Below, piece after piece: positions 1-29,678 of a stretch of 53,368 bases of DNA; within the stretch, counting starts at the first letter, position 1, and every line of letters begins with the position of its first letter. The notes under the pieces are model-generated. The model was given only the letters and a program-made list of their open reading frames with translations. It did no database searches and was not told the origin of the DNA. Source of the DNA: Patescibacteria group bacterium (GTDB taxonomy: Bacteria; Patescibacteriota; Saccharimonadia; Saccharimonadales; 2-12-FULL-41-12); assembly GCA_038064875.1 (NCBI GenBank), contig JBBTSC010000001.1:1-53368 (forward strand), given 5' to 3'. Both the position numbers and the translations under genes were made by a program.

Positions 1-3000
1 CCAGATGAATCTGGAACCCTTTGTATCCAAACTTCTACCAGTTGTGGATTTGCTCCTACTTCAGGCTCAGGTAATTATATCCAAAATCAATACGCATCTC
101 CTCAAGCAGGTGATTTCAGTATTCAAGGGACTTCTGCTGGCAATAGTACTGCTACAATCCAAGGAGCAGTAAATAGCACAGCTACTACTCTGGTAGTACT
201 ACCTGGTTCAAGTCAATCTGGGCCAGTCTTAGATGTCCAGGGCGCTGCTGGCATAAGTGCATTGAGGGTTTCTACCGGTGGTGGGGTTATTATAAATAAT
301 AGTAATCAAGCAGTCACCACTACTGTAAAAAGAACATTAATTGTTGACACAGGTAGCTCAGCAACAGTAGGGCTTATTGTTCAGGGTAGGGCATCTCAGA
401 CGGCAGATCTTTTACAGCTTCAAGATTCTGCAGGAACGATACTCACTTCTTTCGATGCCTCCGGTAAACTTGTCTTTGGCCCATCTGGTTCACAAGACAC
501 CAACCTCTACCGTAGTGCAGCCAATTCGCTCAAGACGGATGATAGTCTATTAGTTCAGACAGCATCAAATTCAACTACTGCCTTTCAGGTCCAAAATACA
601 CTAGGCACAGGCTTATTCACTGCAGACACTTCTGGAATGAAGCTTACTAGTGGAGGGCAGTTAATAGCCCAAACCACTTTTACAAATCTAGAGGTAAATC
701 CAAGCCTAGAAACTAACTTAACGGGTTGGACCTATGATCCAGCAGTTGGAGTCCCTTTCAACTTCAGTCAGACTACTTCATGGTCGTCTTCTGGTACAAC
801 AGCAGGTAGGTATCAAGTAAATGCAGCAGGTTATGGTGATGTCATCACTTCCACAGGAGTGAATGGTTTTCCGGTTACTGTAGGCACAACATATACAGGA
901 CAAGCTGTGTTGAATGTTATTAGTGCCCACAGTTCTGGAGTACAAATAAGGATTAATTGGTACGATGGGTCAGGGGCACTACTTTCAAGTTCTACAAGCT
1001 CTGCTCAAACTGGTACTGGAGTAAAGAACTTATCCGTTACTGCCGTGGCTCCAGCAAGTTCTGCATATGCTTCGTTTTCTCTCGGAGTTCTAACGCCAGG
1101 AGCTAACCAAGACGTACAATTTTATTGGGATTCTGTAATGTTAGTGGCTAATGGTGCAACGCTTGATTATTTTGATGGCAGCATCCCAGGAGCGGTATGG
1201 AATGGTACCGCTCATGCCTCTACCAGCACGCGTAGCTCCATCCTAGGAGGGCTTTCTATATTCAGAAACACAACTAATTCGTCATCTGCCTTTCAGGTTC
1301 AAAACGCAACAGGTACAGACATAATGAACATAGATTCCACTAACTCACAGTTAAGTGTTAGAGGTATAAATAGTATTGCGGTACTGGGTTCAGAATTAGC
1401 TAGCGGAGTGGCTTGTAGTGGTACAAACTGGTCAGGTACCGGCCCATGGACTCACACAGCTGGCTCAACCACTAGTTTGTCATGTAGTCCACCAGCTTCA
1501 GTAACGGCAGGAGCTGTCTATCAAGTTGAATTTACAGTTGGAGGTTCTCCAACCGCAGGCACAACAGTAAGACCTAACATAGGTGGAGCTAATGGAATCT
1601 ATGTAGGTGAAAATAGTAGTGAGTCTCAGCTGATTACCACTAGCAATACTAACGCCTTAATTTTCACCCCATCTTCTAGCTTTAACGGGACAATCAACAG
1701 TATCTCGGTCAAGTTAGTTACCGTATCTAATAATGTGTTGTCTCTGAAAAACAGTGACAATACAGTTGGTTTAGAAATGCGCTCTGGAGGATCTGGCCTC
1801 AGGAATACATTTGTTGGACTTGGTTCAGGAAAAGCAAATATTACTGGCACTGAAAATGTGGCAGTCGGTGATTCATCACTCCTGTACAACACTACCGGTG
1901 TAGAGAATACTGCACTAGGTACTTCAGCCTTGTACTATAACACCACAGGCTACAATAACAGCGCCTCAGGTGCATACTCACTCACTAACAATACAACAGG
2001 CGGAGAAAATACTGCCTCAGGATCCTACTCACTAACTGATAATTCAACCGGTTCTAGAAATACAGCCACAGGGACCTACGCACTGAGCAACAACGAAATA
2101 GGTGATCACAATACAGCAAGTGGCTATAATGCTCTGGGCTCCAGCTCAACAGGGTCTTATAACACAGCCACCGGTTACTATGCGCTTGCATCCAACACGT
2201 TAGGCTCTTACAACACAGCCTTAGGCTATCAAGCTGGCAACACTGACGGTGGTTTTGCTACATTATCCAATCTCCAAGAAGCAAGTGCGATTGGATCATA
2301 TGCTCAAGTACAACAGAGTAACAGCTTGGTCCTTGGCAGAACGGCCACAGGTTCTAATCAGACAAATGTAGGTATTGGCACCACAGCCCCGACTAACCTC
2401 TTTAGTGTTTCGCCGATCTACTATAACACTGGTACGGCCTCACAATCCGGCACTACAATAACAGGATCTGGCACTACATGGACTAGCAGTATGGTTGGTA
2501 TGGAGTTTATTTTTGCCGATGGTACTAAAAGGACTATCACAGCATTTGGTAGCACTACTAGCCTAACAGTAGGCACATCAGGCACTGTTGGCTCTCAGAA
2601 TTACCGTATTCATAATCCAGCTTTCTATGTTACTAATACAGGATCTGTCTCTACGCGTAGTTCAACTAACTCAACCACAGCATTCCAAGTTCAAAATGCG
2701 GCTGGATCATCTCTGCTTAATATAGATACAACAAATAATAAGATAACAATTGGTGGCAATAACTCTGGTGAATTAAATACTTGGGCCTCTACTACTTCTT
2801 TGCCAGTCTCTAATCCTAGAGCCTACCACCCAACCGTTACAGCAAATGGCTACATGTACGTAATAGGTGGTTGGGACGATGTTTCTGCTAAAAGTACAGT
2901 GTACTACGCCAAGGTTGGTGTTGACGGAACAGTCGGTAGTTGGCAGACTAACGCAAATGCTTTGCCAATAGCAATAGGGGATAACGCTGCAGTGGTTGCC

Positions 3001-26201: not shown

Positions 26202-26669
26202 ATGACTACACAAACACCAGAGAACCCGCTCATAGATTTCATAGATCATGCAGGGGTTAATACGATGAAAACATCGGATATGCACAGAGCTCTTGAAGCT
26301 CTCGATAGATTAGGCGAAGGTGCTCCAGAAGAGGTGATACACGAAGCTGATAGGAGTGTGAACTATTTTGCTCATACAGCTAGCGATTTTGTGTGTTCTG
26401 CGGTACTTCAGGCGCCAGATGCACGAAGAGAAGAAGTTGCACAGACTGCATGGGGCCAGGTCGTTCAAGCTACTGATATTCTAGTGCTTGGCCCAGATCA
26501 TCCGAGTGTTAGCGCTGAACATCCAGATATTCAGTGCTCAGCGGAGGAGATAGTCCCAGGAGAGGAAGTCAAAGTGAATCCTAAAGAAAGAGCCACCTGG
26601 CGATCTAGAGTCCAAGAGCTTGTAAGCTCTATGGTAGAAGGCGAAGTAAAACTCTTCATAGCTTACTAA
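26202..26669 (+). CDS. Hypothetical acidic protein
   Basis: 155-aa ORF with an upstream TG-t-TATAAT (26153-61) and a downstream hairpin CTTACTAA-tcat-TTAGTAAG (26662-81). Confidence 0.55.
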   Translation: MTTQTPENPLIDFIDHAGVNTMKTSDMHRALEALDRLGEGAPEEVIHEADRSVNYFAHTASDFVCSAVLQAPDARREEVAQTAWGQVVQATDILVLGPDHPSVSAEHPDIQCSAEEIVPGEEVKVNPKERATWRSRVQELVSSMVEGEVKLFIAY

Positions 26670-26741
26670 TCATTTAGTAAGAGTGTTGTTAAAAAATAGC
26701 TTTCCGAAGGTGTTCTGCCGGATTATGTTATAATTGTCTTC

Positions 26742-27716
26742 ATGAGTGAGAAGAGTAATAAATCAACCAAAAAAACAACTAAAAAAACTGCATCAAAGTC
26801 AGTAAAAAAAGTAACAACTAAATCAACAAAAAAAGCTAAAGTAGCTAAAAAACCAGTAGTTGCGGTGAGTAATGAGGGAGTAAAATCACCAGCACTATTT
26901 GGTCGAATTAAAGGACAGGCGTCTGCTTTTGTAGCAAGATTTAGTCCAAACAAAGATCACGACAACTTCGTTAAACTAAACAGTCTAATATCATCATCTG
27001 CATTGATATATGTACTGCTCGGAGTGCTTAGTGTGTTGGTACTAAAGCCTTTTTATGGCACTGTATCTGTATATTTTCAGACAAAGGACTTTCTAGCTGA
27101 TAATGCAAACGAACAGCTTCTAGGAATTAAAGATCTATACACAATCGATCTAAGATGGATACTGGTTGGTCTGCTAGTTATTTCGGCAATTTTGCTAGTC
27201 ATAACTTCTACAAAAAAGAGAGACATGTATGAGAAATCTTTGAAGAATAAAGATTCAGCTCCTCGCTGGATTTACTTAGGTATTTCATCTGTCGTGACAT
27301 TAACTCTCGTTTCTTTGTTAGTAGGGCTAAATGATCTTGCAGTTATCAAAATGTCTGCAGGTTTGATCATAGCAACAGTTGCCTTAGGCATCATCAGTGA
27401 TAGACAGAACGCTGGTAGCAAAAAACCCGTGTGGCTCGCATTTGTAGTATCACTATTTACAGGCGCAATTGCCTGGTCAGCTATCCTTGGTGCAACTCTA
27501 GGTAGCTATATATATTCAGTTGAAAACTTTGCTTGGTACATCTACGCAGTGCCAGCTGTAGTGTTACTAGGTTTTATCGGATTTGCTTACAATCAATATC
27601 GATATATCTCAGGGAAGACAAAAGATTTCATTGCATACGAAAAGAAATTTGTCTGGCTAGATCTAACTTCAAAAGTTCTCGTATTTGTTCTACTCGTATT
27701 AGCCCTACATAAATAA
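26742..27716 (+). CDS. Heliorhodopsin-family 7-TM protein (divergent) with a Lys-rich N-terminal extension
   Basis: Seven hydrophobic segments and a long loop between TM1 and TM2. HeR-like motifs: YEKSLKNKDSAPRW (helix C Arg-Trp), SLLVGLND, LGIISDRQN, W231, GAIAW, FIGFAYNQ, and YE..F.WLDLTSK with the retinal-site Lys311. Confidence 0.8.
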   Translation: MSEKSNKSTKKTTKKTASKSVKKVTTKSTKKAKVAKKPVVAVSNEGVKSPALFGRIKGQASAFVARFSPNKDHDNFVKLNSLISSSALIYVLLGVLSVLVLKPFYGTVSVYFQTKDFLADNANEQLLGIKDLYTIDLRWILVGLLVISAILLVITSTKKRDMYEKSLKNKDSAPRWIYLGISSVVTLTLVSLLVGLNDLAVIKMSAGLIIATVALGIISDRQNAGSKKPVWLAFVVSLFTGAIAWSAILGATLGSYIYSVENFAWYIYAVPAVVLLGFIGFAYNQYRYISGKTKDFIAYEKKFVWLDLTSKVLVFVLLVLALHK

Positions 27717-28981
27717 TGTCGCACGAAAATTTGCAAAAAGTTCGTCTTGATAAGTTCGTTCAAGGTGGTCAGGCTTTGGGGTTGCTCGAAAGCGGAAAAA
27801 AGATATTTGTTTGGGGTGGTTTGCCCGCCGAATTGGTAGAAGTCAGAGTCACCCGTAACAAATCATCGTACGCCGAGGGCATAGTTGAGAATATAATTGA
27901 GCCTTCTAACGAGAGAATAGAGCCTAAAGAGCCAGCAAGCTATCTGTCAACGAGCCCTTGGCAGATCATGGACTACGGTTACGAGACTCAAGTAAAAAAA
28001 CAGTTAGTCATTGATGCCTCTGAGCAACATAGCGTAGTATTGCCAGAATTTGAAGTAGCAAATGAGGTAGATGAGTCGTCAAGTTATGGCTATCGCAACA
28101 AGATGGAATATAGCTTTTATGGTGATGAAAAAGGGGTGCACCTAGCTCTCTTTAAAAGAGGCACTCACTACAAGAGTATCGTTGAAGGATCAAAGTTAGC
28201 AGACCCAGAAATAGATAAATCCGCGCAGGAAATCCTCGAGTTGCTAAAAAGTAAAAACGTACGCGCAGGTGATCTAAAATCTCTAATAATTAGAACAAGT
28301 AATAATGGTGACAATGTTGGCTGTCTTTTTGTAAAAACGGAAGATTTCCCGACAATTGATGTGCCAAGTATTTTCACGGGATTTTCAGTCTACCATTCAA
28401 ATCCTAAGAGTCCGGCGTCTGTGCCAACAAAATTGTTACAAGAATCTGGCAAGAACTTCCTGAGTGAATCTATAAATGGCAATTCAATAAATTTTGGTTC
28501 GCTTGGATTTTTTCAGGTCAATATACCGGTATTTGAGCAGGCTATCCAGAGAATATCAAAATATGTAGGTAATCATCAAATCATAGATATGTACGGTGGT
28601 GTAGGGACGATAACTACAGCATTAGGCTCAAAGAACGCCACAATCATAGAAAGTGATTCGGCGAATATAGAATACGCTCAGGTAAATACCAAAGACCTGG
28701 ATGCGCAGATTATTCATGAATCTGGAGAAAAGGCGCTAGAACATATAGTTAAAGACAAAATTTTGGTTGTTGACCCACCGCGAGCGGGCTTGCACCATAA
28801 AGTGGTGGGCGCCATTAACGAAGTCAAGCCAAAGTCTTTGGTTTATCTATCTTGTAACCCAGTAACGATGATGCGCGACCTCAGCCTCATAGATAATTAT
28901 AAAATTGTTGATTTTACTGTCTATAACTTTTTCCCGAGGACGCCACATATTGAGTGCTTGGCTGTGTTAGAATTAAAGTAA
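27716..28981 (+). CDS. rlmD: RlmD/TrmA-family RNA (uracil-5-)-methyltransferase with a TRAM domain
   Basis: N-terminal TRAM, YGYRNKMEY, FFQVN, DMYGGVG, VDPPRAG, YLSCNP (catalytic Cys), FFPRTPHIE. Exact target uridine uncertain. Confidence 0.8.
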   Translation: MSHENLQKVRLDKFVQGGQALGLLESGKKIFVWGGLPAELVEVRVTRNKSSYAEGIVENIIEPSNERIEPKEPASYLSTSPWQIMDYGYETQVKKQLVIDASEQHSVVLPEFEVANEVDESSSYGYRNKMEYSFYGDEKGVHLALFKRGTHYKSIVEGSKLADPEIDKSAQEILELLKSKNVRAGDLKSLIIRTSNNGDNVGCLFVKTEDFPTIDVPSIFTGFSVYHSNPKSPASVPTKLLQESGKNFLSESINGNSINFGSLGFFQVNIPVFEQAIQRISKYVGNHQIIDMYGGVGTITTALGSKNATIIESDSANIEYAQVNTKDLDAQIIHESGEKALEHIVKDKILVVDPPRAGLHHKVVGAINEVKPKSLVYLSCNPVTMMRDLSLIDNYKIVDFTVYNFFPRTPHIECLAVLELK

Positions 28982-28991
28982 GCGATATATT

Positions 28992-29678
28992 ATGAAGATT
29001 CACAGGTTTTACATTGGTGGGAAGATAGATCTAAAGCATGATTTTTGGGTGCATGATGAGGCTTTGCTTTGGCAGTGGAACAGAGTGCTTAGGTTCAAAG
29101 AAGGGCGGGAAATTGTTCTATTTGATGGAGTTGGCAAAGACAGGCTTTATGAGATTAAGTCCATTAGCCCCAAAGAAGCTCACCTGAATTTGGTGACAGA
29201 ACTACACGCTAAGTTACCAAAAACACATGTTTATTTGTTTTGGTCGCTGATAAAGAGCGATAAAAATGATTTGGTTATCCAAAAGTGCACTGAGCTTGGG
29301 GTTACAAATTTTGTGCCAATTATTTCAGAAAGATCGGTAAAGACAGGATTCAATTTAGCTAGAGCAGAGAAGATAGCAGTCGAAGCTAGTGAACAATGTG
29401 GCAGATCGACGATCCCTCATATAAGAGAGCCAATTCATATTGAGGAGCTTGTGAAAGAATATGATGATGTCCAGCTTTTAGTTTGCCATTTTGGTCATTC
29501 AGAGCTAGAGCAAATTAAAAAAGACAATAAAATCGGCATAATAGTTGGACCAGAAGGTGGATTTACAGATGAGGAAGTGGCATCTTTGGTGGCAGGAGGT
29601 GCAAAGATTATTGAGCTTGGCCAGATGACACTCAGAGCAGAAACAGCAGCTATTGTGGCAGTAAGTAAGTTTCTGTAG
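28992..29678 (+). CDS. rsmE: 16S rRNA m3U1498 methyltransferase
   Basis: QKCTELGV, EASEQCGR, IVGPEGGF, LRAETAA (SPOUT fold). Confidence 0.95.
   Translation: MKIHRFYIGGKIDLKHDFWVHDEALLWQWNRVLRFKEGREIVLFDGVGKDRLYEIKSISPKEAHLNLVTELHAKLPKTHVYLFWSLIKSDKNDLVIQKCTELGVTNFVPIISERSVKTGFNLARAEKIAVEASEQCGRSTIPHIREPIHIEELVKEYDDVQLLVCHFGHSELEQIKKDNKIGIIVGPEGGFTDEEVASLVAGGAKIIELGQMTLRAETAAIVAVSKFL

Follow-up and report, generated by a model that had tools for sequence, protein, structure and literature searches.

A gene of the heliorhodopsin (HeR) family with a rearranged Schiff-base site is encoded at positions 26,742 to 27,716 of a 53,368-nucleotide (nt) stretch of DNA, hereafter the window, from a Patescibacteria group bacterium (GTDB lineage Patescibacteriota; Saccharimonadia; Saccharimonadales; 2-12-FULL-41-12; assembly GCA_038064875.1, contig JBBTSC010000001.1). 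In characterized HeRs the sole carboxylate counterion of the retinal Schiff base is a Glu on transmembrane helix 3 (TM3); in the product of this gene that position is occupied by Tyr178, and an acidic residue, Asp307, stands on TM7 four residues before the retinal-binding lysine position, Lys311 (hereafter Lys-4). Sequence comparisons give good support to the view that the counter-charge has moved from TM3 to TM7, and such a HeR, a conserved natural variant, was found in none of the papers searched.

Membership in the HeR family is indicated by profile, pairwise and structural comparisons alike. The protein matches the Pfam Heliorhodopsin profile (PF18761) with 87 bits against a gathering cutoff of 26.7, residues 91-313 corresponding to profile positions 13-232 of 242, and scores 79.1 bits, under the cutoff of 100, against the NCBIfam HeR equivalog NF038020. 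A phmmer search of Protein Data Bank (PDB) sequences retrieved TaHeR (6is6; E=2.5e-10) and 48C12 (E=5e-5), and identity to the solved HeRs is 16-19%. The AlphaFold2 model, for which an alignment of 27 members of the clade described below served as input, has a mean pLDDT (predicted local distance difference test score) of 81, with core residues 71-324 mostly above 90, and a pTM (predicted template-modelling score) of 0.73; residues 1-50 are disordered and are followed by seven helices and a beta-hairpin (residues 105-136; strands 105-115 and 125-136) that joins TM1 and TM2. When this model was compared with the PDB by Foldseek, the ten best matches were all heliorhodopsins: TaHeR (6is6) gave a template-modelling score (TM-score) of 0.89-0.90 with a root-mean-square deviation (rmsd) of 2.0 Å over 249 columns and 48C12 a TM-score of 0.81-0.85, whereas type-1 rhodopsins gave only 0.5-0.65 with an rmsd of 5-10 Å. 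Assignment to the type-1 rhodopsins was rejected because the protein has no match to Bac_rhodopsin (PF01036) at E<=10 and all of its best fold matches are HeRs; the schizorhodopsins were rejected likewise, the best profile and fold matches being HeRs and no schizorhodopsin occurring among the significant Foldseek matches. The N-terminal region is strongly basic, loops BC, DE and FG carry a net positive charge (6, 2 and 2 Lys+Arg residues, respectively) and loops AB, CD and EF are net acidic, a positive-inside count that agrees with the inverted topology predicted from HeRs in which the N-terminus lies inside the cell. Close homologues with 70-99% identity retain the motif, and the relative with 70% identity is annotated at NCBI as a hypothetical protein. 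The open reading frame (ORF) is uninterrupted in the window and is a real, intact and selectively maintained HeR-family gene. A preliminary description of the gene, made by eye from the window, had proposed a HeR homolog following the family layout helix by helix, and the profile match and seven-helix model bear this out.

The residues around the Schiff base were assigned by two kinds of alignment, which concur. Pairwise alignment by phmmer places RWIYLGISS opposite RWFEYSISA of TaHeR and WLDLTSK opposite ILSLVAK, and a 152-sequence MAFFT L-INS-i alignment, in which fragments of TaHeR and 48C12 were included, gives the same correspondences: Tyr178 with the Glu counterion, Asp307 with Ser, Lys311 with Lys, and Leu152 with the TM2 His. 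Tyr90 falls in the column of the TM1 His of canonical Saccharimonadia HeRs, so that neither histidine of the HeR Schiff-base cavity is present. Where HeRs carry SxxxK on TM7 and Glu on TM3, the protein reads DLTSK and Tyr178; Arg175, Trp176, Tyr163, Glu300 and Asp220 of the HeR framework are retained. The preliminary description had read the retained lysine, the Glu-to-Tyr and Ser-to-Asp replacements and the two lost histidines in the same way, and its by-eye assignments agree with these alignments at every position. In the 48C12 structure the protonated Schiff base makes direct hydrogen bonds with Glu107 and Ser237, which stand in place of Asp85 and Asp212 of bacteriorhodopsin (BR), respectively, and His23 and His80 line a water-filled Schiff-base cavity; the residues of this site have been described as highly conserved in all HeR subfamilies (PMC7049168). 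Another residue of the protein, Lys203 (27348-27350), lies near the extracellular end of TM4; it is invariant in the clade with TM7 Asp and is also found in all but one of the proteins at the equivalent locus that carry Asp or Glu on TM3 and no His, and canonical HeRs have a hydrophobic residue at this site (the position of Leu132 in 48C12).

The relocated acid is a property of a whole clade and not of a single protein. Relatives were sought exhaustively with HMMER among 1.84 billion representatives; 439 reached E<=1e-3, and the three key columns were tabulated for the best 150 of them. Adding 69 proteins from genomes of the same class gave a pooled set of 219 sequences. In an IQ-TREE tree built after removal of the trait columns, the clade that contains the protein comprises 28 representatives (Shimodaira-Hasegawa-like approximate likelihood-ratio support, SH-aLRT, 98), 27 of which combine a neutral residue on TM3 (Y/F/L/A/V/M) with Asp or Glu at Lys-4 and the lysine itself. 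The co-occurrence of the two replacements, which the preliminary description had proposed to look for among homologs, thus extends across the clade. The TM7-acid state requires seven changes on the tree when isolated cases are counted, at least four of which are forced by well-supported branches. All 40 sequences of the TM7-acid type keep Asp/Glu307, Lys311, Trp176, Tyr163 and Glu300, whereas residue 178 may be Y, F, A, L, V or M and is never acidic; a fixed acid at 307 alongside a drifting, neutral residue 178 is what a shift of the constraint from TM3 to TM7 would be expected to produce.

The two acids rarely occur together. Among the best 150 representatives, those with the lysine have an acid on TM3 only in 66 cases, on TM7 (Lys-4) only in 32, at both sites in 2 and at neither in 7, and 23 of the 33 with neither Lys nor Arg at this position have no acid at either site. 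The pooled set shows the same distribution: with Lys at position 311 (n=164) the acid is on TM3 only in 111 sequences, on TM7 only in 41, at both sites in 3 and at neither in 9; with Arg (n=15) these numbers are 12, 1, 1 and 1; and with a neutral residue (n=40) they are 10, 0, 0 and 30. Mutual exclusivity of the two acids in the 164 sequences with Lys has a Fisher p of 3e-26, a value uncorrected for phylogeny, and an independent-pairs comparison on the tree yielded three supported pairs, a number insufficient for a sign test. A few members of the same class show rare states of the site: Gln on TM3 with Glu at Lys-4 (L051, G307:C1:9000-13000), His on TM3 with Asn at Lys-4 (L054, G286:C2:585400-589500), and both Asp residues together (L020, G266:C1:75917-79762).

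Gene order adds to the picture of how this site has diverged. A conserved arrangement of a HeR gene, a TRAM-domain 5-methyluridine (m5U) RNA methyltransferase gene and an RsmE gene recurs in related genomes (loci L002-L031 and L036-L056): the m5U methyltransferase lies directly downstream of HeR in 22 of the 30 best-matching related loci, and six of the other eight have an RsmE homologue downstream instead; the order may stem from functional coupling or from plain stable synteny in small CPR (candidate phyla radiation) genomes. The HeRs at this locus differ in their Schiff-base sites. Family f14 has fully canonical HeRs (both His residues, RWxEY and SLVAK); families f6, f12, f13 and f15 have Asp or Glu on TM3, Ser, Gly or Asn at Lys-4 and Pro in place of the TM2 His; in families f10 and f4 the lysine has been lost; and in the window's own family, f1, the protein is of the TM7-Asp type in nine of nine genomes. 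Lys/Thr-rich N-terminal tails (14-21 Lys+Arg in the first 60 amino acids) are found on the HeRs of loci L003-L031 across many families of the Saccharimonadales whatever the state of the chromophore site, fully canonical HeRs included, whereas the lower-scoring matches of the class at other genome positions are mostly ordinary, tail-less canonical HeRs. The canonical and Asp-type HeRs of other Saccharimonadia (a group surveyed in PMC9166423), which share class, a place ahead of the m5U methyltransferase and RsmE genes and, in many cases, the Lys-rich tail, are probably orthologues of the protein described here. They differ from it in having Glu or Asp on TM3 with Ser, Asn or Gly at Lys-4, whereas in its clade the TM3 residue is neutral and Asp stands at Lys-4. 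The simplest reading is that all descend from one tail-bearing HeR gene, the Schiff-base site of which was remodelled separately as the lineages diverged. The relocation of the counterion to TM7 that the preliminary description had suggested is thus supported by a monophyletic clade, by the mutual exclusivity of the acids and by syntenic orthologues with canonical sites. With a profile of the clade, HeR-family genes were detected in 152 of 401 genomes of the class, representing 96 of 187 genera. The genome of the window (810 kb, 97% complete) has a single HeR-family gene, the TM7-Asp copy; two other f1 genomes have, beside their TM7-Asp copy, a second, tail-less and canonical HeR of 254-260 amino acids (both His residues, RWVEYS and SLVAK; L034, G328:C1:416300-420250, and L035, G239:C1:36600-40600).

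Full-text searches of the published literature on heliorhodopsins, groups of the candidate phyla radiation (CPR), the counterion and TM7 Asp turned up no HeR reported to have an Asp counterion on TM7. Surveys of HeRs from CPR and GTDB genomes define a bona fide HeR by SxxxK and give SLVAK, SLIAK and SFVAK as the common motifs (Bulzu 2021; Chiriac 2022, PMC9166423); a clade reading DxxxK would therefore have been filtered out. Similarly, a survey published in 2026 and covering about 40,000 rhodopsins lists H1.50, H2.58, E3.45 and S7.46 in canonical HeRs and in every HeR-like cluster that it describes (PMC13739731).

How such a site might work can be outlined from the known structures. Asp307 would most likely serve as the Schiff-base counterion because its carboxylate sits where Ser237 of 48C12 touches the Schiff base and the TM3 site is neutral. 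All-trans retinal would be bound at Lys311, and the protonated Schiff base would be stabilized by Asp307 as the sole counterion, possibly acting also as the proton acceptor, with Tyr178, Ser148 and Ser182 as putative hydrogen-bond partners; a histidine-based proton-accepting group would be absent. The chromophore site would thus resemble that of schizorhodopsins, set in a HeR scaffold, and the most likely role would be that of a slow light sensor or regulator like other HeRs, with the tail contacting a cytoplasmic partner. The retinal would have to be scavenged from the host or the environment because the genome lacks a carotenoid pathway. The absence of retinal synthesis genes, noted in the preliminary description for the window, holds more widely: profile searches for phytoene synthase and for RPE65-type oxygenases, the positive controls of which matched, found neither in the 97%-complete genome, and a search for blh found no match, but its positive control likewise matched in no genome. 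External retinal is taken up quickly by TaHeR and by type-1 rhodopsins of Saccharibacteria (PMC9296517). Overall, we consider that the protein is probably a retinal-binding, photoactive member of the HeR family with its counterion on TM7.

Comparison with known rhodopsins sets this proposal in context. With the canonical HeRs 48C12 (PDB 6SU3/6UH3) and TaHeR (6IS6) the protein shares the fold, the AB beta-hairpin, the predicted N-in topology, the RW motif of TM3, the TM7 Lys and equivalents of Tyr92, Arg104, Trp105, Glu149, Tyr226, Glu230, Trp173 and Phe206. It departs from 48C12 at Glu107 (Tyr), Ser237 (Asp), His23 (Tyr), His80 (Leu), Tyr108 (Leu) and Asn101 (Ser), has an extra polybasic N-terminal region of about 70 amino acids, and scores below the NCBIfam equivalog cutoff. 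The DxxxK motif of TM7 is shared with type-1 rhodopsins (Asp212-x3-Lys216 in BR), but type-1 proton pumps also have Asp85 on TM3 and the opposite membrane orientation. In schizorhodopsins the TM3 site is occupied by Phe and a lone TM7 Asp serves as the counterion (PMC10424672; bioRxiv 10.1101/2025.10.15.682728), and SzR1/SzR4 (PDB 7E4G) resemble the protein in the neutral or aromatic TM3 site and the lone Asp at the position of BR Asp212. They have, however, features of their own, namely a type-1 N-out topology, an FSE motif together with a Cys on TM3, and TM6 and TM7 of the type-1 kind; TM3 of the protein (RWIYLGISSV) lacks the schizorhodopsin Cys. The resemblance is convergent and limited to the layout of the counterion. 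Schizorhodopsins are the closest mechanistic analogue.

Several observations weigh against a light-dependent role. The lysine is absent from 45 of the 150 representatives (about 30%), canonical-looking HeRs included, with 27 changes on the tree, and the members without it retain most of the other conserved residues, such as Trp176, Tyr163, Glu300 and Glu220; light sensing may thus not be the core function of the family. Where Arg, which allows no Schiff base, replaces Lys, a carboxylate is still present in 14 of 15 sequences, and where a neutral residue does so it is dropped in 30 of 40, which is exactly what a charge-pair rule predicts; the covariation of lysine and acid could thus reflect a buried ion pair instead of a chromophore. 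The retinal pocket differs from that of HeRs also at Tyr108 (Leu), Asn138 (Ile) and Met141 (Thr), and the relative with 70% identity comes from a metagenome-assembled genome labelled RIFCSPHIGHO2, which we take to denote aquifer groundwater, a dark habitat. Such points would fit a membrane protein that works without retinal, in which Asp307 and Lys311 would form a structural, buried (i, i+4) ion pair within TM7 and the role at the locus would be exerted without a chromophore, for example by a polybasic tail that tethers or regulates a cytoplasmic partner; the missing retinal pathway and the conservation of tail and synteny regardless of the chromophore site agree with it. Against such a protein speak the invariance of Lys311 in all 40 sequences of the TM7-acid type, a lysine often lost elsewhere in the family, the fully canonical f14 orthologues at the same locus, which are of a kind shown experimentally to bind retinal, the HeR fold kept at high model confidence, and the known use of exogenous retinal by HeRs and Saccharibacteria rhodopsins. 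The non-photoactive alternative, already raised in the preliminary description, thus stays a live rival, which we regard as a substantial minority possibility.

If retinal is bound, the protein could also be a light-driven ion transporter, either a proton pump or a channel, and not a sensor. Schizorhodopsins, in which Phe fills the TM3 site and the only Asp lies on TM7, pump protons inward, a function for which the single-counterion layout is considered critical, and viral HeRs show that proton transport is possible on a HeR scaffold (PMC9448325). A search of the genome for other rhodopsins (PF01036), which would speak for transport if none existed, gave no match, a weak result in that its control matched in no genome. 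No equivalent of the schizorhodopsin TM3 Cys or cytoplasmic Glu acceptor was found, although neither was searched for systematically; positions 202, 203 and 206 in the extracellular half are V/L/F, hydrophobic as in non-transporting HeRs; the profile and fold matches point to HeRs and not to schizorhodopsins; and the tail and the housekeeping-gene context suggest regulation. We regard transport as improbable. Least probable, to a degree that makes it nearly negligible, is that no relocation has taken place, either because the alignment is shifted by one residue or one helical turn or because the gene is a decaying, pseudogene-like HeR in neutral drift. The low identity to solved HeRs and the score below the equivalog cutoff would leave room for such an error, but three independent alignments concur and are anchored by the RW motif of TM3 and the E...K of TM7, the ORF is intact and its motif is kept in close homologues, Asp307 and Lys311 are invariant over a deep clade, and the structural superposition has an rmsd of 2.0 Å over 249 columns. 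Returning to the retinal-binding protein with a TM7 counterion, it is also tempting to speculate that its deep clade, which in these data is confined to Saccharimonadia, arrived by convergence at a schizorhodopsin-type site in a scaffold of inverted topology without the cavity histidines. If scavenged retinal is bound, this would give a new HeR photochemistry and possibly vectorial proton movement in a membrane orientation opposite to that of schizorhodopsins. We think this unlikely; if it were true, Asp307 would act as counterion and as proton acceptor alike, and an episymbiont without another rhodopsin would gain a light-driven or light-gated activity.

The features of the gene and its neighbours are collected in Table 1. 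The first 70 amino acids (26742-26951), rich in Lys, Thr and Ala, contain 19 Lys+Arg against 2 Asp+Glu. The start of the methyltransferase gene and the HeR stop codon overlap by 1 nt (TAATG). Upstream of HeR, the extended -10-like element TGTTATAAT was recognized by eye, its end separated from the HeR ATG by 7 nt, and its placement makes a leaderless or near-leaderless HeR transcript possible; a generic promoter and terminator scan, based for promoters on paired -35/-10 hexamers, did not report TGTTATAAT and gave no signal exceeding chance. Directly upstream of HeR lies an orphan ORF (26202-26669) for an acidic protein of 155 amino acids, which has no Pfam match even at E<=10 and is without a homologue at 29 related loci; in seven of seven related loci scanned the ORF upstream of HeR is MsrA (PF01625), and the msrA gene of the window's genome lies about 100 kb away (G000:C1:127169-127621). 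The 155-amino-acid ORF was rejected as a diverged MsrA because it has no Pfam match, is unlike the MsrA-like ORF of a genome of the same family, and a real msrA is present elsewhere.

Table 1. Features of the HeR locus in the window (positions in nt of the window; aa, amino acids)
Feature	Position	Strand	Basis or remark
Extended -10-like element TGTTATAAT	26726..26734	+	by eye
HeR-family gene, 324 aa	26742..27716	+	ORF list; stop TAA 27714-27716
Lys/Thr-rich polybasic N-terminal tail, aa 1-50	26742..26891	+	pLDDT <50; predicted disordered, predicted cytoplasmic
Seven-helix core with AB beta-hairpin, aa 71-322	26952..27707	+	DSSP on AlphaFold2 model; HeR structural match
Core limits (aa): TM1 71-100, hairpin 105-136, TM2 137-156, TM3 173-193, TM4 199-223, TM5 232-258, TM6 266-289, TM7 296-322			
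Tyr90 codon	27009..27011	+	HeR TM1 His position (48C12 His23); column shared with His of canonical Saccharimonadia HeRs
Leu152 codon	27195..27197	+	HeR TM2 His position (48C12 His80, TaHeR His82)
Tyr178 codon	27273..27275	+	HeR TM3 Glu counterion position (48C12 Glu107, TaHeR Glu108)
Asp307 codon GAT	27660..27662	+	TM7, Lys-4; equivalent to Ser237 of 48C12 and Asp212 of BR; proposed as the only counterion
Lys311 codon AAA	27672..27674	+	retinal Schiff-base lysine position; invariant in clade
TRAM and m5U RNA methyltransferase (RumA/TrmA-like)	27716..28981	+	Pfam PF05958, PF01938
RsmE-type RNA methyltransferase	28992..29678	+	Pfam PF04452, PF20260; synteny

The function of HeRs and the identity of their proton-accepting group are still debated, and the clade described here amounts to an evolutionary swap experiment, in which the Glu and both His residues have been removed and an Asp has been placed at the position of Asp212 in type-1 rhodopsins. 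It offers proteins with which the role of the counterion and of the cavity in HeRs, the dependence of colour and photocycle on the position of the counterion, and the question of whether a lone TM7 counterion leads to transport could be probed. Furthermore, a single locus at which canonical, Asp-type, TM7-Asp, Arg-bearing and Lys-less states of the site are all found would allow a test of whether the role of HeRs in the CPR needs light.

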